From Clostridiaceae bacterium HFYG-1003 (lineage in GTDB: Bacteria > Bacillota > Clostridia > Clostridiales > Clostridiaceae): a DNA stretch of 40,000 nt. The stretch is taken from assembly GCA_024579835.1 (NCBI GenBank), contig CP102060.1, positions 1,795,558 through 1,835,557 on the forward strand. The letters run 5' to 3'. The notes under the pieces were generated by a model that searched no databases, was not told the origin of the DNA, and worked only from the letters and a program-made list of their open reading frames with translations. Shown here in pieces: positions 16,284 to 33,941 of the stretch. Every line of letters starts with the position of its first letter. Within the stretch, counting starts at the first letter, position 1. A program made the position numbers and the translations under genes.

Positions 16284-16319
16284 TCAAATCACCTCTATAA
16301 TCTTAAGATTTGTTTTATA

Positions 16320-16443: not shown

Positions 16444-16472
16444 AATGTCATAACTATGATTTAATAACTATT

Positions 16473-16841: not shown

Positions 16842-16853
16842 GCTTTTATCCTC

Positions 16854-17594: not shown

Positions 17595-17603
17595 TAGTTC
17601 CTC

Positions 17604-17981: not shown

Positions 17982-18468
17982 TTCTCACCTCGTAATAGAC
18001 GTCTGGAGCTGCACAAGGCCGATGTTCTGCTATGCTGCGATGCTCTTCTTTGACGCGATACAGCTTCCCTTCATCAGTCAAAAGCTTGCCGGCTTTATAA
18101 TATTTCTCTGAAGCCCACTTATCAGCCAGCTGCTTGATAGCTTCGGCCTGGCTTGCTAGAGCCGCATCCGGCATGGAGGATAAAAGATTGTCCACTGCAT
18201 TTCGCCGGTTGAACTCATCTACAGCTGCTTTAATCGCAGGGTCCTCAACCGATTCGCCATATAAGACAAATCTTGTAATATCATCTCTTGTTACATTGAT
18301 AAGAAACTGAATGGCTTCAAGGCGCTCCATCTGTACATCTGTTAGCTTTACATCTTCAACCACAGCGGTATCCGGCGCACTAGGTTCATCAGAATAATTG
18401 ATTGTAACTACCGTATTTGTAATTTTATGTTTGAATGGTGACCATCGGTCACCGTTGAAGTGAAACAT
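17971..18468 (-). CDS. Hypothetical phage protein (tail-fibre-adjacent)
   Basis: Track ORF 17971..18483. I moved the start to ATG 18468, preceded by GAGGAGGCTAACA. No family recognised. Confidence 0.5.
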   Translation of the reverse strand: MFHFNGDRWSPFKHKITNTVVTINYSDEPSAPDTAVVEDVKLTDVQMERLEAIQFLINVTRDDITRFVLYGESVEDPAIKAAVDEFNRRNAVDNLLSSMPDAALASQAEAIKQLADKWASEKYYKAGKLLTDEGKLYRVKEEHRSIAEHRPCAAPDVYYEVRNGI

Positions 18469-18479
18469 TGTTAGCCTCC

Positions 18480-19700
18480 TCAAAGATTAGTTACCCTGAA
18501 AAATTCACACTTCCCTTTGTAATTCACTCCGTTCGCGTTATTCCTAAAATACCCAAGTCCAACATGAGTTATCGTTGTAATAAACACACTTAGATATTCT
18601 GTAAAGACCGTCCACCAAAATGAACCGTCAATGGACACATCTAGGGAATATGAAGTGCCGTTCTTCTTGATCCGGACATAGACAGCAGAAGAATCCCACC
18701 CGCCGTTTAGGTAAGGGTCGGATGAGTATTGAGTATCAGAGTTGAACTTGATCACTTGCATTCCAGAATAATTATTCCGGGTGCATTTCCCGAGTATTAC
18801 TCGCTTTCCATTTGTGTTGTTATATAAACATATACCGAAATTCATGTAGTCTAGCCTTGGACACAGAATAGATATCTTTGCTAAGGCAATAAAGTCACCG
18901 GATGGCGCTGCTTGAACAAGGAGCCTAGTATGGTCCACGCCTGAAAGCAAATCCATCATCCCAGATTGGCCGTTTTCAACCCATGTTGCCGCCCCTTGAT
19001 TTATCCATATCCATTTAGGGTCAAGAGTTATGTCATCAAACTCATCATCCATCGGACTGGGGCTAGAAGGTGGTTCGTCAATTGGGTTGGCTCCGGTGCT
19101 GATCGGTGATTGACTAACCCATTGCGCATTGTAATCTTCATTGTCTATTTTAGACAGTACCTGTCCCGCGCTACCCCCAGCAGGCAATCCATTTGCAGCC
19201 TGATCCGGTGATGGAGCGTAAAGCTTACCGGTGGTAGCATCAATCTTCACTTCAGATGACTCCGTGGTTCTTTCCGCGGCCTTAATCCCGCCAAGCGCAG
19301 TATCTGTTGCTTGGGAAATCGATCCGGCAGCTGGTTTTAACATGATAGTATCCGTCAGAGAATCATAGGTTAGCACATATCCGTCCGTCAGCCCGGTCAG
19401 ATCAATGCTCTTACCGCCGATGCTAGACGAAATCCTTACCGCCCCATTCTCGTCAGGAGCTGATACACTGACGTTGTCGCCAGCCAGGATATTCATGATG
19501 GCATTAATTACCTTGCTGGATCCAGAATTACCTATACTGACGTTTTTCCCGGCAACATACGGCACCATATACGCAGATGGGTCATTCACTACTACCTGTC
19601 CTGAAGGCGTTTCAACAACTCCTGGAGCTTGGTCTTCTGAGGTCACCCTGAACTGAGCGTCCGTTTTCCTTTTAAGTGCTTTTGCTAATTCATTGCCCAT
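18480..19700 (-). CDS. Phage tail fibre / receptor-binding protein with a lectin-like (concanavalin-A-like) C-terminal half
   Basis: 406-aa ORF directly after the tail gene. The N-terminal half is fibre-like and G/S/T-rich. A proline-rich linker (DEPPSSPSP) is followed by a beta-rich domain (LDPKWIWINQGAATW...). Confidence 0.6.
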   Translation of the reverse strand: MGNELAKALKRKTDAQFRVTSEDQAPGVVETPSGQVVVNDPSAYMVPYVAGKNVSIGNSGSSKVINAIMNILAGDNVSVSAPDENGAVRISSSIGGKSIDLTGLTDGYVLTYDSLTDTIMLKPAAGSISQATDTALGGIKAAERTTESSEVKIDATTGKLYAPSPDQAANGLPAGGSAGQVLSKIDNEDYNAQWVSQSPISTGANPIDEPPSSPSPMDDEFDDITLDPKWIWINQGAATWVENGQSGMMDLLSGVDHTRLLVQAAPSGDFIALAKISILCPRLDYMNFGICLYNNTNGKRVILGKCTRNNYSGMQVIKFNSDTQYSSDPYLNGGWDSSAVYVRIKKNGTSYSLDVSIDGSFWWTVFTEYLSVFITTITHVGLGYFRNNANGVNYKGKCEFFRVTNL

Positions 19701-21614
19701 TTAGACACCCCCTGTGAAGTACATAGCAAGCTGCTCAATTTGTGTCCTGACATAGCCATTGTTCTTGGTGATTTTTAGCCGGTACTTGGCATAGGGAGTA
19801 GTGTTAACGAACTTGTACGATCTCCATTCATAGACACCCCAACTCGTTTGATTTGTTCTAGTGTCCAAGGTGATCCACTTCTCCCCATCGTAGGCTTGGA
19901 ATGTCCAATCGCGTGGAAGAGCCTTATTCCAGGTTGTATCTTGTCTTGCCTTGATGGAATACTTATCAACGATCGTTTTCTTTGGAAACTCATACTCAAT
20001 CCAGGCCTGCTGTGTTTCAGATGCGTCCCAGAAGTAGTCGCTAGAGGAGGAATTGAAGGCCCGCCATGGGTGGTAATTGATGTTGTAAAGAACATAGATT
20101 GAGCTGGATCTGGCCACACCGGACGGTTTTGTGTTTGAGGTCATTTCTGGAATTAGGTTTAGCGTTTCGTTTGGAGTTTGGGTTTCGATGTCGGACGGCA
20201 ATTCTCCAGGCACAATCGCATCCCCGTAGTAGTAGGCTTTACAAGCCATCGTGAACTTTGTCGAATCCATGTTGAGATTGATTGATATCAGTCGGTATAT
20301 CTCGTGCGAGTTAGTAGAGGTTTCAAATATTTGAATGAAGTCACCAACTTGGAGATGCGGGATGGCAACTGAACTGAATTCAATAACCCTCGTCCGGCTT
20401 CTCATTGTTGCAATTGCTCGTTCCGCAATTTTCCGAAGCTCACTCATTGATGAAGCTTCTGTAGCATCAATCTTTAGAACCTTTTGAGGTAGAATGTTAA
20501 ACTCTACTGCGTCTAGAAATGGAGCAGTATAAACAAGTACATCGTCGCCTGATTTCCCATATACCTTCACAGATTTATACAGATCGTTGTCATCGATAGA
20601 ATAGGTCATCGAGGAAATATCCTCGCCTTCCTTGAAACTCCACGCCACGTACATATCATCTGACTGAAAATCGCGCCTGAAGTGAAAGTCGCCGGATTCA
20701 TCGCATAGATACTCAAAACTTGCAATATCCGACAAAAATGAAAATGCATCTGCGTAAGATTGCCAGGAGAACGTTTTTTCAATCGATATCCCTGTAGGCT
20801 CTATAAAGCCAATTCTCAATCCGCAAAGCTGAGCCAAATCGAAAACTATATCCTCTATTGGTTGCTTTTCGTAGTGGACGGTACTGGATCCGTTCTTTGT
20901 AACAATTTGATCGAGTGCTCGTTTCATGTTGTCCCGAAGGTTTATTTGAGCTATGTGCGGGAAGGTAGACATATGAATTCCATCTACCATGCCCGTAAAC
21001 GAATCCACAAGATCGTTTCCGTATCCCTGTTTGATTTCAACTTTTTTGTTCAGATTCAGAATGCCATATAACGGCCCATTGGGATTGCGCGGATTGACTG
21101 CCCCATTTTTGTTGTCGACTCTGAGTGTTGCAGTGCTCGAACCTCCGAAAGATTTCGAGATAGAAATCGAACTAATATTGAATACTGAACCATTTTTGGT
21201 TCGGGTAAGAGTCACATGGGCAGTCCCTCTTTTCCAGTGAATATTGCCATTTGAAGACCCTTGTAAAACGGCGGGTTCCCAGTCATTAATCGGAATGTCA
21301 GATCGGATCAAATTCCAATTATCGAGTATATTAAGACTTTGATAGGTTGTTGGCGCTTCTGATTTGTATGCGTAGAGACGCCCAAGTCTAAGTACTTCAC
21401 TAGCACCAAGAGTGAACAAATTACCAGCATCATCTTTGTAAAACTTTCTAAGCCAGTTGTACTGCATGGGTGGGATAAATGCGCTAAACCCGCCTGCGTT
21501 CGCCCATGTCCACGTCCCCCCATAATCCTCGCTTTTAAGTATCAGCGATCCGCAGCGCTCTGGCCATGATTTTTTCCGGGCTGTTGAGTTCCACTTCCAT
21601 CCTGTTGAATGCAT
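19701..21614 (-). CDS. Phage tail / baseplate-hub-like protein with a C-terminal discoidin (F5/8 type C)-like domain; 5' end truncated at a deletion junction
   Basis: 637-aa track ORF. An Asp-box SEDYGGTW lies at the junction. The central region resembles gpD/XkdQ-type hub proteins (KKVEIKQGYGNDLVDSFTGMVDG...). The C-terminus reads WRAFNSS..QAWIEYEF..YSIKAR..WTFQAYDGEKW. The first ~25 codons overlap the rha frame and are probably not native. Confidence 0.6.
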   Translation of the reverse strand: MHSTGWKWNSTARKKSWPERCGSLILKSEDYGGTWTWANAGGFSAFIPPMQYNWLRKFYKDDAGNLFTLGASEVLRLGRLYAYKSEAPTTYQSLNILDNWNLIRSDIPINDWEPAVLQGSSNGNIHWKRGTAHVTLTRTKNGSVFNISSISISKSFGGSSTATLRVDNKNGAVNPRNPNGPLYGILNLNKKVEIKQGYGNDLVDSFTGMVDGIHMSTFPHIAQINLRDNMKRALDQIVTKNGSSTVHYEKQPIEDIVFDLAQLCGLRIGFIEPTGISIEKTFSWQSYADAFSFLSDIASFEYLCDESGDFHFRRDFQSDDMYVAWSFKEGEDISSMTYSIDDNDLYKSVKVYGKSGDDVLVYTAPFLDAVEFNILPQKVLKIDATEASSMSELRKIAERAIATMRSRTRVIEFSSVAIPHLQVGDFIQIFETSTNSHEIYRLISINLNMDSTKFTMACKAYYYGDAIVPGELPSDIETQTPNETLNLIPEMTSNTKPSGVARSSSIYVLYNINYHPWRAFNSSSSDYFWDASETQQAWIEYEFPKKTIVDKYSIKARQDTTWNKALPRDWTFQAYDGEKWITLDTRTNQTSWGVYEWRSYKFVNTTPYAKYRLKITKNNGYVRTQIEQLAMYFTGGV

Positions 21615-21882
21615 TTATGAAATCCAGTTTGAAACTCAATGCCTTCGATCCGGTGAACCCCATGGCTAGCAGGCTGAAGCCGTCACGGTTCATGTAGTAC
21701 ATTGGGTATTGTTTGCCCCGGTTCTCGTAAGTCGATTCTTCGAACAATCTCGCTGCCGAATTTTCGGCTGCCAAACTCCTGATAGATTCGAGCACGTGTC
21801 TATGTTCTTTCCCAAACTGTTCCGCTACGATCAGAGAGCTTGTAACCGCCTGATCATTTTTAATAATGGTTAATTCGTTCAT
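21535..21882 (-). CDS. Rha-family phage regulatory protein, C-terminally truncated
   Basis: Track ORF 21535..21987. I moved the start to ATG 21882, preceded by GGAGGAAAG. MNELTIIKNDQAVTSSLIVAEQFGKEHRHVLESIR...YYMNRDGFSLLAMGF matches Rha N-terminal domains. It ends abruptly at ...ARALRIADT, where an antirepressor C-domain normally begins. Confidence 0.7.
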   Translation of the reverse strand: MNELTIIKNDQAVTSSLIVAEQFGKEHRHVLESIRSLAAENSAARLFEESTYENRGKQYPMYYMNRDGFSLLAMGFTGSKALSFKLDFINAFNRMEVELNSPEKIMARALRIADT

Positions 21883-21890
21883 CTTTCCTC

Positions 21891-22046
21891 CTACCATCGA
21901 AGTGTGATTCTGATAGTGTTGTCTTTCTTGAGCATGAATGTTACTGATTCGTGATCCTCGGAGATCCGCCGCCAGCTCCATGGCCAAAGGCCGTAAAACT
22001 TGAGCAGCATATGGTCCCGTTCCTGCTTGGTTAGTTGTTCAAACAT
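21891..22046 (-). CDS. Small phage protein (51 aa) with a sigma-region-4-like LTxxER motif
   Basis: My translation is MFEQLTKQERDHMLLKFYGLWPWSWRRISEDHESVTFMLKKDNTIRITLRW. The ATG at 22046 overlaps the end of the upstream small ORF. Confidence 0.35.
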   Translation of the reverse strand: MFEQLTKQERDHMLLKFYGLWPWSWRRISEDHESVTFMLKKDNTIRITLRW

Positions 22047-22198
22047 CCGACCAGCTCCCCGGTCTGCTGATCCTCGTAGATATCAGCACCGGCATGAAAG
22101 TCTGATCCGACATACCGGACATGTTTCTTCAGCAGCTCCTTTTGGCTAAGTATCTCGATATCGATCGCCCGATCGTAGCAGTCAACACACATTTTCAT
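22031..22198 (-). CDS. Small phage protein (55 aa)
   Basis: My translation is MKMCVDCYDRAIDIEILSQKELLKKHVRYVGSDFHAGADIYEDQQTGELVGCLNN. A strong RBS, AAGGAGGG, lies 9 nt upstream of ATG 22198. Confidence 0.4.
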   Translation of the reverse strand: MKMCVDCYDRAIDIEILSQKELLKKHVRYVGSDFHAGADIYEDQQTGELVGCLNN

Positions 22199-22213
22199 TG
22201 ATTACCGCCCTCC

Positions 22214-22390
22214 TTAAATGATTAGACTTGCGATCTGCTGCAGCTTTTCTCTCAGCCGTTGCGCTTCCAGTCTGGCTTCGTCCCGCTCCTTCTCAGCCCT
22301 GATCTGTCCGTAAGTCTTTTTCTCTCCGCCAGCCAGCTCAATGATCCTTGCAGTCGCATACCGTGCTCCAGGGAGCTTGTCGAGGAGGAT
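22214..22390 (-). pseudogene. 5'-truncated fragment of an early-operon gene (no start codon)
   Basis: The open frame reads ILLDKLPGARYATARIIELAGGEKKTYGQIRAEKERDEARLEAQRLREKLQQIASLII. It follows a TAG and contains no ATG/GTG/TTG. It abuts the truncated XRE gene head to head. Confidence 0.45.
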
Positions 22391-22699
22391 CTATGTGAAT
22401 TAACTGGGTACAAATCACGAACAACTATAGCTAAAGTGGAAAATGGCGACATTGATCTAACACAATCAAAACTTGCGCTATTCGCTGCCGCCTTAAAAAC
22501 AACACCTGAAGAGCTCACCGCAGGAGTCGCTGATGAAATTCTTTCCGAGAACCCGTTTCTCGGATTGATGATTACTATGGATAAAACTCATGCTCGGTAC
22601 CGACTCCCGTTCTCTGAGCTTCCGGAAGATATCCAGTCGAAACTAACGTCAGCCGCTGTATTGGCTGCTCTAGAGTATTACCGTCATTTAGACAAGTGA
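22259..22699 (+). pseudogene. XRE-family HTH repressor remnant, N-terminally truncated
   Basis: The track ORF begins at a TTG inside antisense sequence. HTH_3-like sequence only starts near 22365 (EEDLCELTGYKSRTTIAKVENGDIDLTQSKLALFAAALKTTPEEL). Helix 1 and any plausible start or RBS are missing. Confidence 0.5.
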
Positions 22700-22856
22700 G
22701 GATTTGATTTAATAATGTTAGGTATTGTTCCATTTCGTCCCTCCGTTTTTCGTACACATGTTCTATTTCCATGGTAGCATATCGGAGGGACAAAACCGGG
22801 GACTCGGTCTGGGCTAAAAATTCGGTTGGGTTATCCACAAGAAAGGAGAAAAAACA

Positions 22857-23885
22857 TTGGAAATTGGGAAAATGTTGGTCCGAAAAAAGGACAAGGGTTA
22901 TCAGTATGTGATACCGGTCAAAAAAAATAAATCCTGGATTCAGTTATCCAAACAAGGATTTAAGACGGCCAAAGAAGCTAGGGCGGCTGGAAATGAGCGG
23001 ATCAAAGAGCTGCTGGAAGAAGTACCAATGCCTGTTCAGTCAGAAGACATCACTTTTGGGAAGGTTGCAAAGCTGCTGGAGCTTGAAGGCAACAAGGCGC
23101 TGGCCACAAAGGCAGCTTACGGCGCATGGGCATCAGTGTTTGATGCGATCAGCGACAAACCGGTGAAAGATGTGACTTATCAGGATGTGGCGGATATCAT
23201 TTTTAAGTACCGGGAAACCCACACTCACGAAACCACGGTGCAGGTGAAGAAGCACGGATCCAGGATCATGAAGCACGCCATCAAAAAGCTAAAGGCCACT
23301 ACATATGACCCATTCGAAGATCTTGAGCTAAAAGCTCCGACTCTCTCAGAGAAGAGCGAAAAGACGGCGTTGACGCCTTCACAGATCAATGCCCTGCTGG
23401 ACTGCATGACAGGGTATGAGAAGCTTCTGACCGCTTTCATGGCCCTATGCGGCCTCCGGATCTCCGAGGCAAGAGGGCTTACCCGGGCGGCGATCCAAGA
23501 CGGCAAACTCTCGGTGTTCCAACAGCGAACGGATAAAGAGCTAAAGAGTACGCTTAAGACAAAAAATAGTTACCGTGATGTTCCGATCCCGAAACGCCTG
23601 ATGGAGCTATACCAGGAATATCCAGCTCCAATCAAAGATGACTCGCTGATCTTCCAAAAAATGATTTACTCAAAAACTATTACGTCCCACTATGAAAAAG
23701 CAGGTTTCGCTATTACTCCTCATGAGCTCCGGCACAGCTATACTACTAACTGTATCTCAGCCGGAATCGACTACAAGACGACAGCGGCTCTAATCGGTGA
23801 CTCCGTAGAAATGGTGTATAAGGTATACAGCCACGTCAACGCTGACATGATGGATCGTGCAGCCAAACTTCTAGAGGGTTTTTAA
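22857..23885 (+). CDS. int: Tyrosine-type phage integrase with an AP2-like arm-binding N-terminus
   Basis: 342-aa ORF with TTG start 8 nt after AGGAG. Catalytic motifs are GLRISEARGL, HELRHSY and VYSHV (Tyr). The N-terminus (KGYQYVIPVKKNKSWIQLSKQGFKTAKEARAA) resembles integrase arm-type DNA-binding domains. Confidence 0.9.
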   Translation: MEIGKMLVRKKDKGYQYVIPVKKNKSWIQLSKQGFKTAKEARAAGNERIKELLEEVPMPVQSEDITFGKVAKLLELEGNKALATKAAYGAWASVFDAISDKPVKDVTYQDVADIIFKYRETHTHETTVQVKKHGSRIMKHAIKKLKATTYDPFEDLELKAPTLSEKSEKTALTPSQINALLDCMTGYEKLLTAFMALCGLRISEARGLTRAAIQDGKLSVFQQRTDKELKSTLKTKNSYRDVPIPKRLMELYQEYPAPIKDDSLIFQKMIYSKTITSHYEKAGFAITPHELRHSYTTNCISAGIDYKTTAALIGDSVEMVYKVYSHVNADMMDRAAKLLEGF

Positions 23886-23910
23886 ATTTCTGACGAATTT
23901 CTGACGAAAA
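23885..23910. repeat. Right copy of the 26-bp (2 x 11 bp) repeat
   Basis: Exact match to 7252-7277. It starts at the last base of the integrase stop codon (TAA 23883-23885) and lies 34 bp inside the right 17-mer. Confidence 0.65.
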
Positions 23911-24335: not shown

Positions 24336-27300
24336 ATGAACCTGGAACAATTGGAAAATCGCCTGGCCGAGATCTTGAAAGGGAAAAATCTCGGAGGTCC
24401 CCGTACCTTGGCCAAGGCATTGATCCGGGAAGGGAGCAAAGACCGCTATTCCCTGGCTTCCATGGAACGGGCACTGGGTCTCGAGATTCCCAAAGAGGCC
24501 TTTTACGAGTACGTTGTGACCTATGCCTATCCGGATCAGGCCCGGGCCGTGGACTCCAGAACAGCCCGCCAATTTTCCGGTTTACTGGAAGTCTATTCGG
24601 CGTTGACGGACTACTTTAAGACCCTCGGGGGCGATGACTTCATCGGCCGCCACCCCTTCCATTTTTTGACCCGGGATGAACTGGCCAGCCTGCCCGATGA
24701 CGAATACCGCAGCTTCCTCGAAGCGTTCAGCCGGGACCGGATCTATGAAATTATGAAACTGTCCCGGGAGATCTTTGGCTACAATACGCTGGATCACGTG
24801 CTGGGCGTTCATTTTGTCGCCATGCACATCGCGCGCCAGTTCCGCCGGCTTGGATTCAACATCGACCTGGGGCGTGTCTCCGGTGCAGCCGCAGGTCACG
24901 ACATCGGCAAGTTCGGCGTACTGAAAAAAGACAGCCGACGAGTTCCCTACCTCCATTACTATTATTCGGACCTCTGGTTCCGGCGGCATGACATCCACTA
25001 TATCCGCAACATCGCCGTGAACCATTCCACCTGGGATCTGGAACTGGAAAACCTGTCCCTGGAATCCCTGATTCTGATCTATTCCGATTTCCGGGTTAAG
25101 AATCTCGAGGGTTCTCAGCCGCTTGAGATGCACATCTATCCGCTGGATGAATCTTACGATATTATTCTCCACAAGCTGGACAATGTCACACAGGAAAAAG
25201 CCAACCGTTATCAGAAGGTCTACAACAAGCTCCATGACTTTGAGGAGTATATGGAGGCCAGCGGCATCATTACAGATCCCTATTCCCGCGAGACACCGGT
25301 ATACCGTGAAATCTACCGGGATGACCTGGCCCTGACCTTCGGCGCTCAGCTTCCGCACACGCTCAAATTCTTTGCCGTGCGGCACAACACCAGCATCATG
25401 TGGCTGTTGAAGGATGAAAAGAGCCTTGGCACGCTGCTGGAGGAAGCCCGGTCTTCCAACAGCTGGCAGGATCTGCGCGAATATGTCAGAGTTTTTGAAG
25501 AATACAAGACGTATCTGACTCAGAAGCAGAAGCTGCAGACCCTGGAATACCTGAAGGAGAACCTGGTCCATCCGGAAGATGACATCCGGCTCCACTCGAT
25601 CCGGATTATGGGCGAACTGATCGCCAGCTATGATGAGGATTATCGAAAGGAACTGCCGGAGGGAGTTGTCCCGGACACCGGCAGCACCGGCGGTCCGGAA
25701 CTGTTCCTGGATCTGATGGATTACCTCATTCACCCTCCGGTTCAAACCATCGACAGTCATCGCCACATGCTGGGGCATTCCCTGGGTCAGCTTCTGGCTG
25801 CTCTGTTTCCCGAACTTCCGACAAAGGACTCCGCTTATGTGCGAAAATATTCCGATCTGTTCCTGGATCGTTTCGCCAGAGCTCCTCAGGAAGACCCGGA
25901 AACATCACTCTATCTTCTGGAAGCAGCCAAATACCTGCCCAAAGCCGCCCGACCCGAAACCATGCCGGTCCTGGCCCATTTTCTGAAACACGGCGACCGC
26001 TGGCAGATTATCCTGAGCCTGGAACTGATCGGACGCTACGAAGCGAATGATCTGGACGCTGAGGTCCTGCATCCGCTGCTGACTGGTCTGATCTACCGGG
26101 ATGAACTTGGCCGAACCGTGACTCAGCTCCTGCTCAAGGTTTCCAACCGCTTCCTGACACAGGAACAGCGGCAGGTGCTGCTAGGCTTCATGGAGAATTC
26201 CAAGGACCGGATTCCCATTGTGTTCCTGTCCAACCTCAAGACCGCCACTCACTGGTCCCTTAAGCGAAATCAGCTGAAACTGCTCCTGTATTTTTCCATT
26301 ACCCGGGATGATGTGTCCACCATCAATACCGCGATCCATCTGTGCAACCTGATCAAAGTATCCGCCTTTGAAACGGTCCGGCGCAGCGCCGGAAATGCCC
26401 TGCTGGCCCTGATGAATCACCTGAATGCCTTCGAACGCAATGAGGTGGTGGTGGAACTGATCCGCGCCCTGGAGATTGAAGGACAGCGCTTCACCCAGTA
26501 CATCCCGAACTTTTTAGGCCGGGCCATGCTTTATCTGGAAGACCGCGAACTGTCCGAGACCATCGATGACATGGAAGAAAAGATCAAGGTCGCCAAGCCT
26601 GAACTGAAAACCCTGATTCTGAACACCGCGGGCACTGCCCTGGCTTTTTACCGTCAGTTCCAGGACAAGTTTCTTAAAGAGCACACAGCAGACCATCTGA
26701 ATGCCCTGATCGGCATTCTGCTGTCGGCCCTGGCCGACCCGGACAGCCAGGTGCGGCGAACCGCCATGACAGTAATCGGTCGCCGGCTGTTTGCCAATCC
26801 CATCCTGTCCATTGATCATCAAGCCGGATTCTTCCACGATCTGGCGAAAAAAATCGTTGTTCTGACCCATGAACAGGATGGCGACTCCCTGACCTTCATG
26901 TCCAATGCAGCTGCCTTTAATCATATTTACCGCTTCATGGGCGACCATGAAATGGCTCGGGGCGATCTGAAGGTCCGCGATCGGGGACGGTACGCCTTCT
27001 TCGCCGGCTCCTTTGATCCCTTTACGCTGTCCCACAAAGCAATTGCCCTGCTGGCCCGCGACATGGGCTATGAAGTCTACCTGGCTGTGGATGAATTCTC
27101 CTGGTCAAAAAAGACCCTGCCTAACAAAGTTCGCCGTCAGATCATCAGCATGAGCATTGCAGGCGAGGAAGACCTCTATCTCTTTCCGCAGGGAACGCCG
27201 ATCAACATAGCCAATGATCAGGATATCGATCACCTGCGCCAGCTGTTCCATGACCAGGTGACCATCCTGTGCGGGTCCGATGTCGTGCTCAACGCCTCCG

Positions 27301-29063
27301 CCTACCAGAATCAGAAAGCCGTGGCTGCTCTGCCCCATGTGGTCTTTCTGCGCAATGAGCCGGCCGAACACCTGAACCTCATGAGACAGCGACTCGGCGA
27401 GTACCGGATGCTCAATCTGCCGGATGAGCTGAAAACTATCAGTTCCTCGCAAATCCGGGACTACATCGACGAGAACCGGGACATTTCCACGCTGATTGAT
27501 CCGCTGGCTCAGTCCTATATATACGACAATGGCTTCTATCAGAAAACCCCCATTGAAAAACCAATGGCCCGGTTCAACAACCTGAGGCTGTCCGTCGAAA
27601 CCAAATTGACGGCGGAACTCGAGCAGGAACTGGCTGGACTGTTCCAGGGGGAACCATCCCTGGCGGGCCTGATTCGGCAAACTCTGGTGAAACCGTCCGG
27701 CCGGATCATGATCCTGCGCGATCATGACCGCAACGAGCTGGCCGGACTGGTGCTGGTCCACTGGACTCGAACGTCCATGTTCCTCAAGGAAGTGCCCCAT
27801 GTATCCCTGGCTGACACTCTGCGTCATTCCACGCTGGGCCGCCTGGCCACCATTGACTATGCCTGGGTGGCAGCTCATGACGAGCAGCGCGATTACCATC
27901 AGATTCTTTTAACCGAAGCGCTGTCCTTCCTCATTGCCCGGGACTATGAGAACTGCCTGTACAATCCGAAGCTTCCGGTCAAAGATCCGCGCATTGAAGA
28001 GACCCTGAGTCTGTTTAATTTCAGTCGTCTGGACGAAGCAGGCCGGCGGCTCTATATGGTGGACATGACCGCCCCGGTGGTTTTGAACCTGGATTTGGAG
28101 AATATTCTGAAAGAGCCCTTCCGCAGCTCCCCCATCATCCGCCGCGCCGTGGTTCGTACGCGCTGCCGCCTGCAAGGCGCCCTGGGCGACCTGTTCCCCG
28201 GCAAACTGATCATTCCGCTGGAACCGCTGATGCTCCATCAGGCCATGATCCGGAAAATCACCTCAGAAAACAAAGTCCCGCCGGTGGAAGGTCCCCGGCG
28301 AGAACTGGGCAAATACATGTGTGTCCCTTACGGGGATCTCTTGGATGACCACCTCATCCCCAATACCGTCACCAAGTCACTGCATACTGAAAAATACTAT
28401 GAGCCGGATCTGACCACGTTCTCGATTCGGGAACTCCCCTTCTACCTGAACCTGGAAAATCAGGTCAAGACCATCAAGTCCTTCAACCGGGACCTCATCC
28501 TGGTAGATACTCTGACTCACAAAGGGTACCGTATGGATGCCCTGAATCCGCTGCTGATCAAGCATGACCTCCGGATCCGCAAAATCATATCCGGCATCGT
28601 GTCAGCCCGCGGGCGGGACCTGATTGAAACCATGGGCCACAAAATCGACTCCATCTATTACTTCCCCAGAATTCAGTCATGGTTCAACGAAAACCAGCTG
28701 TATCCCTTCCTGGGTGGCGACTCGATGTGGCGGGGCCATTTCCCCGAGCGCAACCTGCTGCCCAGCATCAACCTGATTCTGCCCTATACCTTTCCTTCCT
28801 TCCTGACTTCTCAGCCCCGGGAAGAAGTCATCCGCCTCTCAAGGATCTGTCATGAAAACGCCCTGGAGCTGTTCCGGGTCATTGAAACCGAGTATAACCG
28901 CCTCAATGCCCGCAAAATGACGCTCAGGAATCTTGGTCAGGTCATCACGATCCCCCGGTCGGTGGATCCCGGCGTCGGAATTCACTATGATCTGACCCAA
29001 AGCCCTTCTACCTTTATTCAAAATAATCTGGAAAACCTGATCCGGCTCAATCCCCTGGTGTGA
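24336..29063 (+). CDS. Giant multidomain protein (~1575 aa): HD phosphohydrolase, HEAT-like repeats, NMNAT/NadD-like cytidylyltransferase-fold domain, GNAT-like region and PRTase-like C-terminal region
   Basis: Track ORF 24249..29063. I moved the start to ATG 24336, 5 nt after GGAGGTGA. HD motif: LDHVLGVHFVAMH...AAAGHDIGKF...NHSTWD...IYSDFRV (about nt 24780-25100). Nucleotidyltransferase: YAFFAGSFDPFTLSHKAIA...ISSSQIRDYI (about nt 26985-27545). PRT-like: NRDLILVDTLTHKGYR (about nt 28490). HEAT-like: PDSQVRRTAMTVIGRRL, EDDIRLHSIRIMGELI. Confidence 0.8.
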   Translation: MNLEQLENRLAEILKGKNLGGPRTLAKALIREGSKDRYSLASMERALGLEIPKEAFYEYVVTYAYPDQARAVDSRTARQFSGLLEVYSALTDYFKTLGGDDFIGRHPFHFLTRDELASLPDDEYRSFLEAFSRDRIYEIMKLSREIFGYNTLDHVLGVHFVAMHIARQFRRLGFNIDLGRVSGAAAGHDIGKFGVLKKDSRRVPYLHYYYSDLWFRRHDIHYIRNIAVNHSTWDLELENLSLESLILIYSDFRVKNLEGSQPLEMHIYPLDESYDIILHKLDNVTQEKANRYQKVYNKLHDFEEYMEASGIITDPYSRETPVYREIYRDDLALTFGAQLPHTLKFFAVRHNTSIMWLLKDEKSLGTLLEEARSSNSWQDLREYVRVFEEYKTYLTQKQKLQTLEYLKENLVHPEDDIRLHSIRIMGELIASYDEDYRKELPEGVVPDTGSTGGPELFLDLMDYLIHPPVQTIDSHRHMLGHSLGQLLAALFPELPTKDSAYVRKYSDLFLDRFARAPQEDPETSLYLLEAAKYLPKAARPETMPVLAHFLKHGDRWQIILSLELIGRYEANDLDAEVLHPLLTGLIYRDELGRTVTQLLLKVSNRFLTQEQRQVLLGFMENSKDRIPIVFLSNLKTATHWSLKRNQLKLLLYFSITRDDVSTINTAIHLCNLIKVSAFETVRRSAGNALLALMNHLNAFERNEVVVELIRALEIEGQRFTQYIPNFLGRAMLYLEDRELSETIDDMEEKIKVAKPELKTLILNTAGTALAFYRQFQDKFLKEHTADHLNALIGILLSALADPDSQVRRTAMTVIGRRLFANPILSIDHQAGFFHDLAKKIVVLTHEQDGDSLTFMSNAAAFNHIYRFMGDHEMARGDLKVRDRGRYAFFAGSFDPFTLSHKAIALLARDMGYEVYLAVDEFSWSKKTLPNKVRRQIISMSIAGEEDLYLFPQGTPINIANDQDIDHLRQLFHDQVTILCGSDVVLNASAYQNQKAVAALPHVVFLRNEPAEHLNLMRQRLGEYRMLNLPDELKTISSSQIRDYIDENRDISTLIDPLAQSYIYDNGFYQKTPIEKPMARFNNLRLSVETKLTAELEQELAGLFQGEPSLAGLIRQTLVKPSGRIMILRDHDRNELAGLVLVHWTRTSMFLKEVPHVSLADTLRHSTLGRLATIDYAWVAAHDEQRDYHQILLTEALSFLIARDYENCLYNPKLPVKDPRIEETLSLFNFSRLDEAGRRLYMVDMTAPVVLNLDLENILKEPFRSSPIIRRAVVRTRCRLQGALGDLFPGKLIIPLEPLMLHQAMIRKITSENKVPPVEGPRRELGKYMCVPYGDLLDDHLIPNTVTKSLHTEKYYEPDLTTFSIRELPFYLNLENQVKTIKSFNRDLILVDTLTHKGYRMDALNPLLIKHDLRIRKIISGIVSARGRDLIETMGHKIDSIYYFPRIQSWFNENQLYPFLGGDSMWRGHFPERNLLPSINLILPYTFPSFLTSQPREEVIRLSRICHENALELFRVIETEYNRLNARKMTLRNLGQVITIPRSVDPGVGIHYDLTQSPSTFIQNNLENLIRLNPLV

Positions 29064-29107
29064 CCGCCACGGGGTGGCCGTTCAGGCAATCTGCCTGGAG
29101 GTACGCT

Positions 29108-30334
29108 ATGCATCAATGCCAATGGAACGGAACAACCTTCCTGGTTCCTGATCAATATACGAAACAGGTCCGGAACCGGCTGGGTGATTCCGTCACTCTT
29201 CACCCCCTGACCGATCTGACACCCCTGAAATCGAGTAGAAGCCTGAATCTTCTGGTCGACGACCATCGCTTCACGGGCCGCTTTCTGGCCAGAAATCTTG
29301 ATTTCTGCGGAAATGGCCGCCCGTTCCCACTCCTGATGGATCCGGGCCCCGCTCCGGACCACAGTTTCACGGCTCACATCAATGACGGAGAGGTCCTCTA
29401 TCAGGTCCTAAATCTGGCGGAAGGGAAACTGGCGCCGGAAAGTCCGGAATCATACCGGGTCGTGATCTGCGGCCTGGGCGATGTCGGTGGCACCCTCTCA
29501 ACCGGTCTGAGGCTGCTGGGTGACGAAACCATCTCTGAAATTCTGCTTTATGACCGCAGCGAATCCAAGCTGCAGCGCTGGTACCGGGAAGCCTCTCAGA
29601 TTCTCAAGCCGGATGGCTCCTATATGCCGCCCGTCCGGATCATTGAAAAAAAGGACCTGTTCCAGGGCGATGTCTTCATTTTCTGCGTATCTGCCGGCGT
29701 TCCGCCGCTGGGTGAAGAAGCTGGGCGCGATGTACGGATGATCCAGCTTGAAAGAAACGCGGAGATCCTCAAAGAATATGTCAAGTTGGCCCAGGAATGC
29801 GATTACCAGGGTCACTTCTTCATCGTTTCCGACCCGGTGGACCAGCTCTGCATGACGGCCTGGCAGAGCGGCAGCCTGCACAGTCAGCAGATCCGGGGAT
29901 TCGGCCTCGGCGTCATGTACGCCCGGGCAGTCTTCCACGCCAATGAACAGAATCTGCCCATGGACGAACTTCGGGTTTATGGACCGCATGGCGAAGGACT
30001 TCAGGTACTCGACCGCATTACAAAGTATCATGAAGCCCAGTCTGAGCTGCTGACCGAGAAAACAAGGACCGAAAACCTGACCATCCGCGCGACCGGCTTC
30101 AAGCCTTACATCGCGCCGGCTCTCTCCTCCGGTGCCCTGTCGATTCTGGCCTGTCTGAAGGGACAATGGCATTATTCCAGCACCCTGATGGATGGTGTCT
30201 GGTTTGGAGCACGCAACCGCCAGCATGGCCATTACAATGAATACGAAGCCTTGCCCCTGACCGAATCCTTTCTGGGAAAACTGGAGGCGACCCGAGTCAA
30301 TCTGATCAACTCGATGACAGGAGTGACCCCATGA
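29108..30334 (+). CDS. Divergent lactate/malate-dehydrogenase-fold (Rossmann) protein with a ~110-aa N-terminal extension
   Basis: Track ORF 29060..30334 (GTG start). ATG 29108 lies 6 nt after GGAGGT. Motifs include YRVVICGLGDVGGTLSTGL (GxGxxG), FIVSDPVDQL (compare NPVD) and YGPHGEG (compare GEHGDS). Confidence 0.7.
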   Translation: MHQCQWNGTTFLVPDQYTKQVRNRLGDSVTLHPLTDLTPLKSSRSLNLLVDDHRFTGRFLARNLDFCGNGRPFPLLMDPGPAPDHSFTAHINDGEVLYQVLNLAEGKLAPESPESYRVVICGLGDVGGTLSTGLRLLGDETISEILLYDRSESKLQRWYREASQILKPDGSYMPPVRIIEKKDLFQGDVFIFCVSAGVPPLGEEAGRDVRMIQLERNAEILKEYVKLAQECDYQGHFFIVSDPVDQLCMTAWQSGSLHSQQIRGFGLGVMYARAVFHANEQNLPMDELRVYGPHGEGLQVLDRITKYHEAQSELLTEKTRTENLTIRATGFKPYIAPALSSGALSILACLKGQWHYSSTLMDGVWFGARNRQHGHYNEYEALPLTESFLGKLEATRVNLINSMTGVTP

Positions 30335-31158
30335 GCATCGAACTGCACTGCCACACCACCGCTTCGGACGGCTTGTACAGCCCGGCTGAACTTGTGAAGA
30401 CAGCCCTTGCGGCAAATGTGCGCGTTCTGGCCGTGACCGATCATGATACGACCAAGAGTCTGGCGGAAGTAGCCAGACTGTGCGCAAATACTTCGGTTTA
30501 CTTCATTCCGGGCATCGAACTGTCCACCTGGAATGGAGAGGAAAGCATTCATCTGTTGGGATATTTTCGCGGCAGTGACTATCAAAACCGGGAACTGACA
30601 GAACAGCTGGAATCTTTTCAAACCCGCCGAACGGAACGTGCCAGGGAGATTCAGGAACGCCTGAAAATCCACTACGGTTTGGACATCGACTTGTCCCTGC
30701 TGCCGCATCAGGCGGGCGCTTCCATTGGCCGGGCCAACATTGCCCGCCTGATCCAGGAAAAGTATCGAATTCCAAAAGACGAAATTTTTGCCCGGTTCCT
30801 TGGAGACCATACCAAGGCCTTCATCCCCTCCTCCAGAATGCCGGTTCAGGAAGGAATCCAGCTGTTGAAAGCCGCCGGAGCCACCGTGATCCTGGCCCAC
30901 CCGGGAGAGCTGCGCAAAAGCAGCTTCGCTGAGTTGTTCGAACTGGATTTTGACGGAGCGGAATGCTACTACCCGAATCATAGCCCCCGACAGACCCGGG
31001 AGTTCCTCCAGGCCTGTCATCGAAAGAACCGCCTCGTCACCTGCGGCTCTGATGATCATGGCATCCAGGGAGACAAAAAGCACGGAACACTGGGAAGCAC
31101 CCTTTATGATCCGGCAGAAGTAGAACCTTTTCTGAGGCGCATGATCCAGGCAGAATGA
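30331..31158 (+). CDS. PHP-domain phosphoesterase (TrpH/YciV-like)
   Basis: 275-aa ORF. MSIELHCHTTASDGLYSPAELV...LAVTDHDT is the PHP metal-binding signature. Its ATG overlaps the upstream stop (ATGA) and AGGAG lies upstream. Confidence 0.8.
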   Translation: MSIELHCHTTASDGLYSPAELVKTALAANVRVLAVTDHDTTKSLAEVARLCANTSVYFIPGIELSTWNGEESIHLLGYFRGSDYQNRELTEQLESFQTRRTERAREIQERLKIHYGLDIDLSLLPHQAGASIGRANIARLIQEKYRIPKDEIFARFLGDHTKAFIPSSRMPVQEGIQLLKAAGATVILAHPGELRKSSFAELFELDFDGAECYYPNHSPRQTREFLQACHRKNRLVTCGSDDHGIQGDKKHGTLGSTLYDPAEVEPFLRRMIQAE

Positions 31159-31392: not shown

Positions 31393-32109
31393 ATGAACCT
31401 CAAGGAAATGAAAAAAGCCAGTGACAATCTGCACCGGCAATTGAATCAGAAAAATGACTATCGCATGACTGAAGTCATCCGATACCTGAAAGATAAGGAC
31501 CTTTCCACCCATCAGTTTGAGACTCTCCGCCTGGAGCTGCTGAAACAGGCAGTGGCGGCCGAAGAAAAGGGAAAGCCGGCCGATTCGGCGTTTGGCTATG
31601 ATTACCGCAAAGCCGTGGACTCTATGGTTCAACAATTGCCGCCGATCCCGCCAGCCGAGCGCTTGGGCGAAGCCTTCCGGTTGTGGGGCATGTTGGTTCC
31701 CATTCTTTTCGGAATTTCTGTCGGCAGCGACCTGATCCTGACATTGACGGGAAGCAGTGACAGCCCCTGGACATGGTCGGTCACAGCCAATGAGCTCGTG
31801 TTAGGCCTCCTCATCATCGGTCTGGCCATTTCCATCACCAGCCTGTTCAGCCGTTTCAAGCTGGAACGCGATCCGGATTTTTTCTCGAAGAAGGAGGGCA
31901 ACCGTCTGCTCGATTTCATCCGCAGCTACGGCTCCAGCCTCCTCTGGATGCTGCTCTGCTTCGGACTGATGTTCCTGCTGAAGGATCGTCGCCTTCTAAC
32001 CTTGCCCCTGCCTTCAGCCGGAGCGGCTGTTCTGATCGTAACTGCAGTCTACTTCTACATCCTGCGCTTATTTGAAAATCAGGCCGCACAGTCCGCCAGG
32101 GCTGACTAG
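31393..32109 (+). CDS. Membrane protein with an N-terminal helical domain and about 4 TM segments (DUF1129/DUF1048-like)
   Basis: Track ORF 31354..32109. I moved the start to ATG 31393, preceded by AAGGAGATCACCAA. A soluble N-terminal ~95 aa is followed by hydrophobic helices. Confidence 0.55.
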   Translation: MNLKEMKKASDNLHRQLNQKNDYRMTEVIRYLKDKDLSTHQFETLRLELLKQAVAAEEKGKPADSAFGYDYRKAVDSMVQQLPPIPPAERLGEAFRLWGMLVPILFGISVGSDLILTLTGSSDSPWTWSVTANELVLGLLIIGLAISITSLFSRFKLERDPDFFSKKEGNRLLDFIRSYGSSLLWMLLCFGLMFLLKDRRLLTLPLPSAGAAVLIVTAVYFYILRLFENQAAQSARAD

Positions 32110-32364: not shown

Positions 32365-32793
32365 TCAAATAACTTTGCTGGTTTTTGATTCCATACAGGC
32401 AGAACAGACGCCGGTAAAATTGATATTCTGGGTCTCCACCTGGCAGCCCGCCAGTTCTTTTGAGATCAGATGAGGCGGAATTTCTATTTCCACGTCAAAC
32501 ACCTGGTGACAGGCATCGCATTTAAAATGGGCATGAGGCTTGATGGGATGAAGGTCAAAGCGTGATTCGTTGCCTTCAATCGGAATAATATCGATCAGTC
32601 CGTGTTCATTGAATAAATTCATGGTGTTGTACACCGTAGCTTTGGATAAAGTGGGAATGTCATGAATCAAAGCCCAATAGATGTCATTTACGGTGGGATG
32701 AATGGGGTTCTGATGCAGGAATTCATAAATGCGTTTGCGCTGGTAGCTCGGCTTAATGCCTTTTTCCCTCAAAAAGATGTCAATATTTCTCAA
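32365..32793 (-). CDS. Fur-family metalloregulator (PerR/Zur-like)
   Basis: 142-aa ORF with TTG start 8 nt after AGGAGGG. Motifs are KPSYQRKRIYEFL, ATVYNTMNLF, HAHFKCDAC and GVCSAC (CxxC pairs). Confidence 0.8.
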   Translation of the reverse strand: MRNIDIFLREKGIKPSYQRKRIYEFLHQNPIHPTVNDIYWALIHDIPTLSKATVYNTMNLFNEHGLIDIIPIEGNESRFDLHPIKPHAHFKCDACHQVFDVEIEIPPHLISKELAGCQVETQNINFTGVCSACMESKTSKVI

Positions 32794-32806: not shown

Positions 32807-33727
32807 CTATGCGTTACGTGTCGCTAATTCTGTGATGCGTTGGTCAATAATTTCACTTGGTGTCAGTCGTGCTGTTTTGGAGTAACGATAGTTGGCCGCC
32901 GCAGCTTCAATGATGATGGCAATGTTCCGTCCGGAGCGTACAGGAATGGTCAGTTTTTTTACGTCGACACCCAGGATGTTTTGGTATTCGTTGATTCCGA
33001 GCCGATCATAGGTTCCTTCCTCTTCGCCTTCCCAGCGCTGCAGGTGAATGATGAGATCCACGTTCTTTGCCTGGGAGGTCGACGAGAGTCCATACAGTTG
33101 GGTTATATCAATGATGCCCATACCGCGCACTTCCATCATGCCGAACGTAATTTCGGGGCAGTACCCAGTCAGGACACCATCTACTTCACGAACATCCACC
33201 GCATCATCGGAAATCAGACGATGACCGCGCCGGATCAGTTCCAGGGTAGCCTCCGACTTGCCCACGCCGGAATCACCGGTAATCAGCAAGCCGATGCCGT
33301 GAACATCGATCAGTCCGCCATGAAGACGCACTTCCGGTGCCATTTCATTGGCCAGGTATACTGTCAGTTTCGAAATGAACTTGGATGAGCTCTGGTCTGT
33401 TCGAAGCACCCATTGCTGATTTTTCTGAGCTGCTTCCAAAAGTTCGGAATGGGCTTCCAGTTTTCGGGTGATGATGATGCAGGGCATCTCATTCTTGAAA
33501 TAGCGCTGCAGTCTTTTTTTACGCAGAGCTGGCTCCAGTTCATCCAAAAAGCTCCATTCGCCGTTTCCGATGACCTGAATGCGATCATTGTCAAAATAAT
33601 TATAAAAGCCGGCCAGCTGCAATCCCGGACGGTTGACATCCTGAACGGTAATCAGGTTATCCACGGTTCCGGGAACCAGAATTTCCAGCTTGAAATCGTC
33701 GATGAGTTTTTTAACTGTTACTGCCAT
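32807..33727 (-). CDS. hprK: HPr kinase/phosphorylase
   Basis: Track ORF 32807..33745. The start at ATG 33727 ([17 protein letters not shown]) aligns with known HprK N-termini. [43 protein letters not shown] contains the P-loop and signature. Confidence 0.9.
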   Translation of the reverse strand: [306 protein letters not shown]

Positions 33728-33941
33728 CCTCGCCACCATCCGCATATGTTATATCCGTGTTGTCCAGGGTAGCGCGCAAGTTGCGCCCGATTCGCCGAAT
33801 GTATTCCTTGCGGTAAAGCGCGCGTTCCTGTGTTTCCAGTTCAGTCAGTTCCCGGATCCGGGAATTGGCTGTAAATTGATTGATGCCTTTGATAAGATCA
33901 TCCAAAGCCATCGATTGAAGTTTATTTTCTAAATCTGTCAT
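33711..33941 (-). CDS. DUF896 (YnzC-like) small protein
   Basis: Track ORF 33711..33980. I moved the start to ATG 33941, preceded by GAGGATTAGAATC. The sequence MTDLENKL...LTELETQERALYRKEYIRRIGRNLRATLDN matches the DUF896 pattern. Confidence 0.7.
   Translation of the reverse strand: MTDLENKLQSMALDDLIKGINQFTANSRIRELTELETQERALYRKEYIRRIGRNLRATLDNTDITYADGGEDGSNS

Follow-up and report, generated by a model that had tools for sequence, protein, structure and literature searches.

What is the function of the three-gene operon that occupies positions 24336–31158 of the 40,000-nucleotide (nt) stretch analysed here (hereafter, the window; contig CP102060.1 of Clostridiaceae bacterium HFYG-1003, positions 1,795,558 to 1,835,557)? 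A sequence-only reading had described these genes as an uncharacterised nucleotide-handling operon built around a giant fusion protein. The best explanation is that the locus encodes an enzyme complex which anaerobic Clostridia carry on the chromosome and inherit vertically, and we infer that it is best read as a machine making, modifying or degrading an adenylylated small molecule. In its specific form, we tentatively favor a make-and-trim machine for an NAD-like dinucleotide, operating with redox partner proteins.

Gene 1 (24336..29063, + strand) begins at the ATG at 24336, which is preceded by GGAGGTG, and its stop codon ends at 29063. The open reading frame (ORF), its ribosome-binding site and its full-length homologues define a multidomain protein of 1575 amino acids (aa), and NCBI likewise annotates a 1575-aa product in two complete genomes. 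Two complete genomes, those of Clostridiaceae bacterium HFYG-1003 and of Proteiniclasticum sp. QWL-01, encode members of the 90%-identity clusters to which the gene 1 and gene 2 products belong, there called "cytidyltransferase" and "lactate dehydrogenase", respectively; public records name gene 1 either "cytidyltransferase" or "nicotinate-nucleotide adenylyltransferase". The protein is composed of an HD-type domain, a HEAT solenoid (~500 aa), a NadD-like nucleotidyltransferase (NTase), a GNAT-like domain, a uracil phosphoribosyltransferase (UPRT)-like domain and a helical tail. All five domains proposed by the sequence-only reading for this large ORF hold at the profile or fold level, the PRTase-like one tentatively, and CTP_transf_like is the sole Pfam family above cut-off in the protein. 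AlphaFold2 (AF2) models were built from 48-sequence alignments with the protein split in two parts, giving a predicted local distance difference test (pLDDT) score of 88.8 and a predicted TM-score (pTM) of 0.85 for residues 1–870, and 74.8 and 0.78 for residues 861–1575.

Conservation is distributed unevenly along the chain. Compared with 18 distant members, the window protein has an identity of 0.60 in the HD domain, 0.57 in the UPRT-like domain and 0.52 in the NTase, as compared to 0.37 in the HEAT solenoid, 0.35 in the GNAT-like domain and 0.15 in the first 100 residues. Because identity is highest in the HD, UPRT-like and NTase domains and lowest in the HEAT and GNAT-like regions, the protein may be read as a scaffold that evolves more freely and bears three centres for catalysis or ligand binding. 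In an alignment of 26 full-length homologues (42–81% identity), on which all residue invariance in gene 1 was judged, the active-site residues of these three domains are invariant.

The HD-type metal phosphohydrolase domain (aa ~101–310; 24636..25265, +), the most conserved of all, contains GHDIGK and the H…HD…H…H…D arrangement. H154, H188-D189, H207, H230, D234 and D251 (nt about 24795–25088) are invariant and form the six-ligand H/HD/H/H/D pattern found in binuclear HD enzymes. The motif set had been placed at about nt 24780–25100, and its ligands are indeed found there, though the Pfam HD score of the window protein is sub-threshold (14 bits against a cut-off of 22, E 0.065). Pfam HD reached E≤0.1 in nine of the 26 members (best 0.015), and TIGR00295 and HDIG likewise gave weak, sub-threshold matches to the region. 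When the HD-region profile was compared with the PDB at E≤10, only 1xx7 was retrieved, as a marginal match (E 0.4).

The adjacent HEAT/ARM-like α-solenoid spans aa ~338–870 (25347..26945, +). In the AF2 model the N-terminal half of the protein is all-helical, with the globular HD part preceding a continuous solenoid, for which Foldseek retrieved Kap121p, SF3B1 and PP2A-A (E about 1e-6). Pfam HEAT was found in 21 of the 26 members and is sub-threshold in the window protein. Model, fold matches and Pfam together bear out the proposed stretch of about 450 aa of HEAT-like repeats.

The NadD/NMNAT-like, HIGH-type NTase domain (aa ~880–1072; 26973..27551, +) carries both expected signatures, GSFDPFTLSH at residues 891–900 and ISSSQIR at 1035–1041. 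Pfam CTP_transf_like covers residues 888–1041 with 27.9 bits against a cut-off of 21, a PDB sequence search also gave NadD matches, and Foldseek matched the NadD structures 8aih, 3mla and 4ybr with target TM-scores of 0.63–0.65 (0.65 for 8aih and 3mla), which supports a NadD-type domain. H900, S1036, S1037 and R1041 are invariant, and the family forms of the two motifs are [ST]LSH and ISS[ST]QIR. The motifs DEFSWSKK and GSDxxxxxxxY, which resemble a nicotinate mononucleotide (NaMN) site, are invariant as well.

The GNAT-like fold (aa ~1083–1312; 27582..28271, +) was modelled with a pLDDT of about 85–95. Its Foldseek matches include GCN5, NatF, KKT23, AANAT, FeeM, TmcA and the acetyl-CoA-binding C-terminal domain of ICL2 (E 1e-5 to 2e-3, target TM-score 0.5–0.65). 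TmcA, the tRNA(Met) cytidine acetyltransferase, matched at E 5.7e-6, and Elp3 and Kre33/NAT10 were also retrieved. The GNAT-like call therefore stands at the level of fold, but the region has no Pfam match at E≤1, and the Q/RxxGxG/A acetyl-CoA loop is absent from the 26-homologue alignment, the window protein reading EQRDYHQ at the expected place. Given that the canonical loop is missing and that conservation is among the lowest in the protein, a structural or regulatory role seems more likely for this region than a catalytic one.

The type I phosphoribosyltransferase (PRT)-like domain (aa ~1320–1490; 28293..28805, +) appears to resemble UPRT specifically. Its motifs are MCVPYGD, HTEK, ILVDxxxHKGYR and YPFxGGDxxWRG, and the loop that had drawn attention to it, LILVDTLTHKGYR, corresponds to residues 1387–1399, of which D1391, H1395, G1397 and R1399 are invariant. 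Foldseek matched the UPRT structures 1i5e and 1o5o (E 1.7e-3, probability 1.0, 19% identity, target TM-score 0.44). In hhalign, the family profile placed ILVDxxxHKGYRM on the phosphoribosyl pyrophosphate (PRPP) loop LIVDPMLATGGSV of E. coli Upp (E 0.09). Smith-Waterman alignment to Upp was collinear over ~160 residues, with z-scores of 3.1 for the window protein and 1.9 and 4.1 for two other members, and paired CVPY-GD with VVPILRAG and LYPFLGGD with YIIPGLGDAGD. The C-terminal 280 aa gave no relevant match in a PDB profile search, and none in Pfam or NCBIfam. In the family equivalent of the PRPP loop, ILVD[TN]xxHKG[YH]R, the strand and the first Asp are kept, and an invariant basic sequence stands where the T/S-G-x-T phosphate loop would be. 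The loop had been called degenerate; a likeness to a PRT is probable, but the loop is invariant and lies in the second most conserved domain.

Residues 1461–1487 (~28716–28796; GGDxxWRGxFPxRNLLPSxNLxxPY) are among the most invariant of the whole protein and are also the part modelled with the lowest confidence (pLDDT 32–41). Invariance combined with low pLDDT is the behavior expected of a mobile loop that closes over a substrate, and this stretch might be such a loop. The chain ends in a helical tail (aa ~1495–1575; 28818..29060, +; AF2 helices at model residues 635–711) with a conserved PR..D.G..YDL motif. Two long antisense ORFs lie within gene 1, at 24582–25778 (−) and 27105–27899 (−), and one antisense ORF family of ~147 aa recurs in 28 loci. 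Such antisense ORFs are most likely not genes and would follow from the strong conservation of the sense-strand codons.

Gene 2 (29108..30334, +) encodes an NAD-binding protein of the lactate dehydrogenase (LDH)/malate dehydrogenase (MDH) fold, as Pfam, PDB and alignment evidence indicate. It has 408 aa, including an N-terminal extension of ~115 aa. The proposed identity as a divergent LDH/MDH-fold protein was upheld: Pfam Ldh_1_N reaches 33.5 bits (cut-off 27), and among solved structures the L-LDH 4q3n is the best match (E 2e-10). Its NCBIfam equivalog scores are 15–43 bits against cut-offs of 283–352. The ATG at 29108 lies 44 nt after gene 1 and 6 nt past a GGAGG box. A GTG at 29060, which would overlap gene 1 by 4 nt, was considered as the start and dropped; both spacings given by the sequence-only reading are arithmetically right. 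We chose ATG 29108 because of the GGAGG box, because the N-termini of 19 homologues align there, and because the NCBI product has 408 aa. In a 20-sequence family alignment, GLGDVGG, R210, D242, M270, R273 and H294 are invariant, R210, R273 and H294 being the equivalents of LDH R109, R171 and H195. The protein thus shares with L-LDH and MDH the Rossmann GxGxxG motif, an acidic residue at the end of β2 and these three equivalents, and differs from them in its ~115-aa extension, which has no family match.

Gene 3 (30331..31158, +) encodes a PHP-family phosphoesterase of 275 aa from the TrpH/YciV/RNase AM/pAp-phosphatase branch. Pfam PHP reaches 36.3 bits (cut-off 26.4), and the ATGA overlap with gene 2 lies at 30331–30334, in line with the PHP identity and the overlap given by the sequence-only reading. 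The protein resembles TrpH/YciV/RNase AM and the 3',5'-bisphosphonucleotide phosphatase Cv1693 over its full length: the PDB relatives 9etk, 3e0f, 7ug9 and 2yb1 were retrieved at E 1e-27 to 6e-20, with 9etk at E 1.5e-27 over residues 1–267. Unlike these enzymes, gene 3 is translationally coupled to an LDH-like gene. The NCBIfam models for nucleoside-bisphosphate phosphatase and for RNase RNM each give it 132.6 bits, under the equivalog cut-offs of 375 and 400.

The distribution of these genes redefines the conserved unit. More than 2600 relatives of the gene 1 protein exist at 90% clustering, all of about 1600 aa and with full coverage. A scan of a one-genome-per-species collection gave at least 600 matches, and 596 of the listed stretches were confirmed; these carriers, at least 596 in number, belong almost entirely to the class Clostridia. 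All but one of the 80 loci listed are clostridial, the exception being a record titled Calditrichales bacterium MX18-03. Carriers include Clostridiaceae, Proteiniclasticum, Peptostreptococcales, Tissierellia, Sedimentibacter, Fusibacter, Anaerovorax, Acidaminobacter, Dehalobacterium and a few Blautia, with many anaerobes of gut, digester and sediment among them.

Neighborhoods were counted from the clustered ORFs of 86 non-redundant loci. The LDH-like gene lies directly downstream of gene 1 in 79 of them, most gaps being −4 to +25 nt, and the loci without it mostly stop at a contig end or represent a second giant-gene copy that has no partners. The next gene in 64 loci, usually overlapping the LDH-like gene, encodes an FMN_red-family protein of ~350 aa with a flavodoxin-like domain in its C-terminal half (71–81 bits) and a CX2CX4CX8C motif, whose four Cys are invariant in all 62 sequences; from what is known of the family, this points to an iron-sulfur flavoprotein. 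A PDB sequence search gave no match for it, and its N-terminal extension has no detectable similarity to that of the LDH-like protein. On the other hand, the PHP gene is present in only 14 loci. The sequence-only reading had treated all three genes as one unit, and the pairing of genes 1 and 2 held in the co-occurrence counts, but the inclusion of gene 3 did not: the conserved unit is gene 1 plus the LDH-like gene, with the flavoprotein gene as the usual third member and PHP as an accessory neighbor. In several Clostridium-type genomes the PHP gene lies 220–560 nt after the flavoprotein gene. In the clade of the window (the window itself, L003, L009, L017 and L033) there is no flavoprotein gene, and PHP lies −4, −4, −1, +10 and +54 nt from the LDH-like gene; no flavoprotein homologue was found anywhere in the 40 kb of the window. 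The simplest history is that the flavoprotein gene was deleted in this lineage, bringing PHP into translational coupling.

Some loci depart from this layout. Copies of the giant gene with neither an LDH-like nor a flavoprotein gene beside them occur in L039, L040, L042 and L084, and one metagenome-assembled genome holds two copies, L038 with partners and L040 without. In L026, about 5.4 kb of other genes lie between the giant gene and the LDH-like/flavoprotein pair. A DUF4883 gene stands ahead of the operon in Clostridium sensu stricto.

Each domain of gene 1 comes from a known superfamily, and the architecture and the operon are without a described counterpart. Full-text literature searches found no paper on the gene 1 family, and the curated libraries (Pfam, NCBIfam and PADLOC) hold no functional description of the gene 1/gene 2 architecture. 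Together with the solved structures, these sources assign no function to the gene 1 protein, in agreement with the initial view that the family is uncharacterised.

NadD is fused or adjacent to YqeK, an HD-family di-iron hydrolase, in Mollicutes and Firmicutes. In the NadD–YqeK fusion, NadD produces nicotinate adenine dinucleotide along with wrong analogues, and these compounds as well as Ap4A are hydrolysed by the HD domain (10.1101/2021.12.01.470718). This fusion is the closest described precedent for the gene 1 protein, which also joins a HIGH-type NadD-fold NTase, with ISSxxxR and the catalytic His, to an HD metal hydrolase with six-ligand H/HD/H/H/D in one polypeptide. Unlike the fusion, gene 1 has the reverse domain order with ~500 aa of HEAT between the two, has a GNAT-like and a UPRT-like domain in addition, exceeds it four- to fivefold in length, and is tied to LDH-like and flavoprotein genes, partners that NadD–YqeK is not known to have. 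As in NAD salvage, where the bifunctional enzymes NadM-Nudix and NadR work with the phosphoribosyltransferase NadV, the domains imply base phosphoribosylation, mononucleotide adenylylation and hydrolysis of a pyrophosphate bond; however, the putative PRT is of the type I, UPRT-like kind and not a type II NamPRT/NaPRT enzyme, an HD domain takes the place of Nudix as the hydrolase, and the 82 upstream regions scanned show no link to an NAD regulator. The C-terminal domain appears to resemble Upp (1i5e, 1o5o) in fold and in the collinear pairs VPILRAG/CVPYGD, LIVDPMLATGGS/ILVDxxxHKGYR and YIIPGLGDAGD/LYPFxGGDxxW, but it is only ~19% identical with no Pfam or PDB sequence match, has HKGYR in place of TGG(S/T) and a shortened RAG loop, and sits as a putative catalyst in a giant protein. 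CitC, the citrate lyase ligase, likewise combines a GNAT-type fold with a HIGH-type NTase in one chain; in gene 1 the order is opposite, the CoA pyrophosphate loop is lacking, and there was no Citrate_ly_lig match even at E≤1.

We favor the dinucleotide reading because the UPRT-like, NadD-like and HD domains map onto a path from base to mononucleotide to dinucleotide to hydrolysis, with NadD–YqeK as a precedent. Every substrate and every reaction in it is one that we infer. The UPRT-like domain would bind a ribonucleoside 5'-monophosphate, or form one from a heterocyclic base and PRPP. The NadD-like domain would adenylylate the mononucleotide with ATP, yielding a base-ribose-PP-adenosine dinucleotide, and the binuclear-metal HD domain would cleave phosphoanhydride or phosphoester bonds in this dinucleotide or in wrong products, as YqeK does beside NadD. 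Keeping the three centres together and docking partner proteins would fall to the HEAT solenoid and the GNAT-like fold. The LDH-like protein, which retains the glycine motif for NAD binding and the Arg/Arg/His substrate triad, may carry out a redox step of the 2-hydroxy/2-oxo-acid type on the substrate, or use the product, and in most genomes the iron-sulfur flavoprotein would join this redox chemistry. In the clade of the window, where the flavoprotein gene is gone, the coupled PHP protein is likely to be a nucleotide 3'-phosphatase or a short-oligonucleotide nuclease. The domain folds, motifs, gene coupling, conservation pattern and phyletic range are directly supported. The invariant active-site residues, the high conservation of the HD, NTase and UPRT-like domains, the NadD-type and UPRT-type matches, the gene coupling, the invariant LDH-like residues and the four Cys of the flavoprotein are counted for the scheme; the spread across Clostridia, the synteny with hprK, the sigma-A boxes and the lack of phage copies, true plasmid copies or PADLOC matches are counted for a housekeeping character of the operon. 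A more far-reaching version, to which we give a modest chance, pictures a clostridial "megasynthase" of 1600 residues that makes an unseen nucleotide cofactor or signalling dinucleotide: the UPRT-like domain would ribosylate an unusual heterocyclic base, the NadD-like domain would add AMP, HD would proofread or turn over the product, and the LDH-like protein and flavoprotein would reduce or oxidise the base, giving a second, lineage-specific NAD-like redox carrier or an alarmone.

Several results weigh against the dinucleotide reading. The NTase domain is clearly not an orthologue of NadD, to judge from its NCBIfam scores of 34.4 and 36.1 bits against equivalog cut-offs of 112.45 (TIGR00482) and 315 (NF005519), and it has Ser/Thr in place of the first His of HxGH ([ST]LSH), as do PPAT and VPA0413. 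A likeness of the HD domain to YqeK, which the sequence-only reading had named as a neighbor of NadD in Firmicutes, is not detectable by sequence: the HD-region profile matched no YqeK entry in the PDB even at E≤10, and an NCBIfam scan of the gene 1 protein gave no YqeK match. The UPRT link is weak at the sequence level (hhalign E 0.09; target TM-score 0.44), with three methods agreeing on it. Classical PRTs have a second acidic residue and a TGxT phosphate loop, both replaced here, so that the domain could sense a ligand instead of catalysing a reaction. A HEAT scaffold of 500 aa is seen more typically in proteins that bind macromolecules than in small-molecule metabolism. In gene 2, LDH D168 is replaced by the invariant Met270 and N140 by the invariant Asp242, so that dehydrogenase chemistry is not assured. 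Upstream of gene 1, an Rfam search of the window and five loci found no riboswitch or leader, and no site of a known NAD, redox, purine or pyrimidine regulator was found there that would link the operon to a pathway. In 82 upstream regions there was no clear enrichment of Rex, NiaR-like, CodY, cre or Fur/PerR boxes: Rex (5 against 2.9 in shuffled expectation), cre (9 against 3.7) and CodY (17 against 9) are too weak to call, and NiaR-like and Fur/PerR boxes are at or under expectation. De novo k-mer enrichment returned only Shine-Dalgarno and sigma-A −10 boxes (TATAAT, TGnTATAAT).

The altered PRPP loop and the missing GNAT loop suit another reading, in which the LDH-like protein and the flavoprotein do the catalysis as an NAD(H)- and ferredoxin-linked 2-hydroxyacid oxidoreductase of amino-acid-fermenting anaerobes and the giant protein is its scaffold and regulator. 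The UPRT-like, GNAT-like and NadD-like domains would then sense PRPP or UMP, acyl-CoA, and ATP or NAD allosterically. PRT folds serve as sensors in PurR and PyrR and the GNAT-like domain of ICL2 senses acetyl-CoA, and it is this C-terminal domain, from M. tuberculosis, that Foldseek retrieved. A HEAT solenoid is a typical protein-docking surface, and the N-terminal extensions of the LDH-like protein and the flavoprotein (115–160 aa, without family) could be docking modules; the hosts are mostly amino-acid fermenters, and some loci lie near glycine reductase or 2-hydroxyacyl-CoA dehydratase genes. However, H900, ISSxxxR and the full H/HD/H/H/D set are invariant within the most conserved domains, which is rare in sensor domains, the window clade retains the giant protein intact (100% coverage) without the flavoprotein, and a few genomes (L039, L040, L042) have partner-less copies of the giant gene; we consider this reading less likely than the dinucleotide one. 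An RNA (tRNA or small-RNA) modification or end-repair complex is unlikely. In such a complex the HEAT solenoid would bind RNA, the GNAT-like and UPRT-like domains would modify a base, the latter holding a flipped-out pyrimidine, HD and PHP would process 2',3'-cyclic phosphate, 3'-phosphate or 5' ends, and the NadD-like domain would adenylylate an end or add or remove an NAD-type cap. TmcA (E 5.7e-6), Elongator Elp3 and Kre33/NAT10 are among the best Foldseek matches of the C-terminal half, but the long TmcA and Elp3 alignments have TM-scores of 0.12–0.17 and reflect the GNAT core plus generic α/β regions. RNase AM (7ug9), a 5'-3' exoribonuclease, and RNase RNM belong to the same branch as the PHP protein, yet PHP is found in 14 of the 86 loci only. 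The HDIG signature is shared by the HD domains of RNase Y and of CCA-adding enzymes, whereas the NadD-fold enzymes known to us act on mononucleotides and none on RNA ends. The 86 loci contain no conserved tRNA, RNA-ligase, kinase or methyltransferase genes nearby, and the LDH-like protein and flavoprotein would have no obvious role.

The layout of gene 1 also recalls GlnD, which has a nucleotidyltransferase and an HD hydrolase on one chain. Following the logic of GlnD/GlnE, the NadD-like domain would AMPylate, and the HD domain de-AMPylate, a client held by the HEAT repeats, possibly the LDH-like enzyme, with the GNAT-like and UPRT-like domains as metabolite sensors; HEAT scaffolds do bind proteins, and gene 1 is in tight linkage with its partner genes. 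To our knowledge, though, protein nucleotidylyl-transferases have Pol-β, Fic or kinase-like folds and none is of the HIGH/NadD type, and the invariant NaMN-site-like motifs suggest a small mononucleotide as the acceptor, which makes protein nucleotidylylation improbable. Finally, NAD-centred chemistry is common in defence, and an integrated element ends 426 nt upstream of the operon, which could point to an anti-phage or conflict system acting on NAD or nucleotide pools. This explanation is close to refuted. No PADLOC model matched gene 1 or gene 2, as had been expected from the lack of a described defence system with this combination, and gene 3 gave only a chance-level match (E 0.07). No relative of gene 1 was found in phage records, and its sole "plasmid" match is a chromosome-sized replicon of 2.6 Mb. 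The family is instead conserved at full length in the confirmed stretches across Clostridia with hprK synteny, its GC content is host-like, and relatives have a DUF4097 gene pair at the element's site. The probability left over after the dinucleotide reading and these four alternatives belongs to something else.

In at least 596 confirmed stretches, strong purifying selection has preserved a 4.8-kb gene that has no assigned function and whose three nucleotide-enzyme centres all appear active. The public annotations of genes 1 and 2 hide this functional gap, and can mislead when the NAD synthesis and lactate metabolism of Clostridia are reconstructed. Should the dinucleotide reading prove true, the operon would represent a new branch of nucleotide-cofactor biochemistry and a second, larger example bearing on the partnership of NadD with HD (YqeK); if the scaffold reading is true, it would be a rare bacterial HEAT-repeat platform that organises redox enzymes. 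The operon is a well-defined experimental target, with two cultured strains of complete genome sequence whose proteins fall in the window's 90%-identity cluster.

A perfect direct repeat of 26 nt, AATTTCTGACGAATTTCTGACGAAAA, flanks the integrated element (~16.6 kb, 7252–23910), with its two copies at 7252–7277 and 23885–23910. A tyrosine integrase gene lies at its right end (22857–23885) and an HTH_3 repressor-like gene at 22259–22699. The element also encodes an 1865-aa protein (8238–13835, +) with RHS repeats (161 bits), CBM96 and CBM_4_9, a polymorphic-toxin-like cargo that is unusual for a small prophage-like element. The operon, which starts outside the right repeat, has a GC content of 0.51–0.56 as compared to 0.34–0.50 within the element. 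The placement of the operon outside the att repeats with host-like GC is thus corroborated, and its genes are host genes, not prophage cargo. Because relatives have the DUF4097 pair at that position, the insertion is specific to the window genome and its adjacency to the operon accidental.

Downstream of the operon, after a gap of 235 nt, a gene translated from ATG 31393 (31393..32109, +) encodes a membrane protein of about 238 aa with a soluble helical N-terminal part and about four predicted transmembrane segments. It has no family match, and by tblastn it is conserved beside PHP in the closest relatives only (L043, 45%; L009; L003); its membership of the operon is doubtful. A Fur-family regulator gene (32365–32793, −) follows beside hprK (HPr kinase/phosphorylase; 32807–33745, −), whose position relative to the operon is kept in L043, L017, L033 and L001; in several Clostridiaceae, too, hprK follows the operon within a few kb. 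Further along, a UvrD/REP-type superfamily-1 helicase of 746 aa is encoded at 36256–38496 (−). The sole Rfam matches in the window and the five loci searched were one T-box and one tRNA, both unrelated to the operon. The T-box leader (122 bits; L005, 6120–6353, −) lies near the operon copy of Clostridium hydrogeniformans on the opposite strand, upstream of a gene cluster for a methyltransferase and Cys-Met metabolism.

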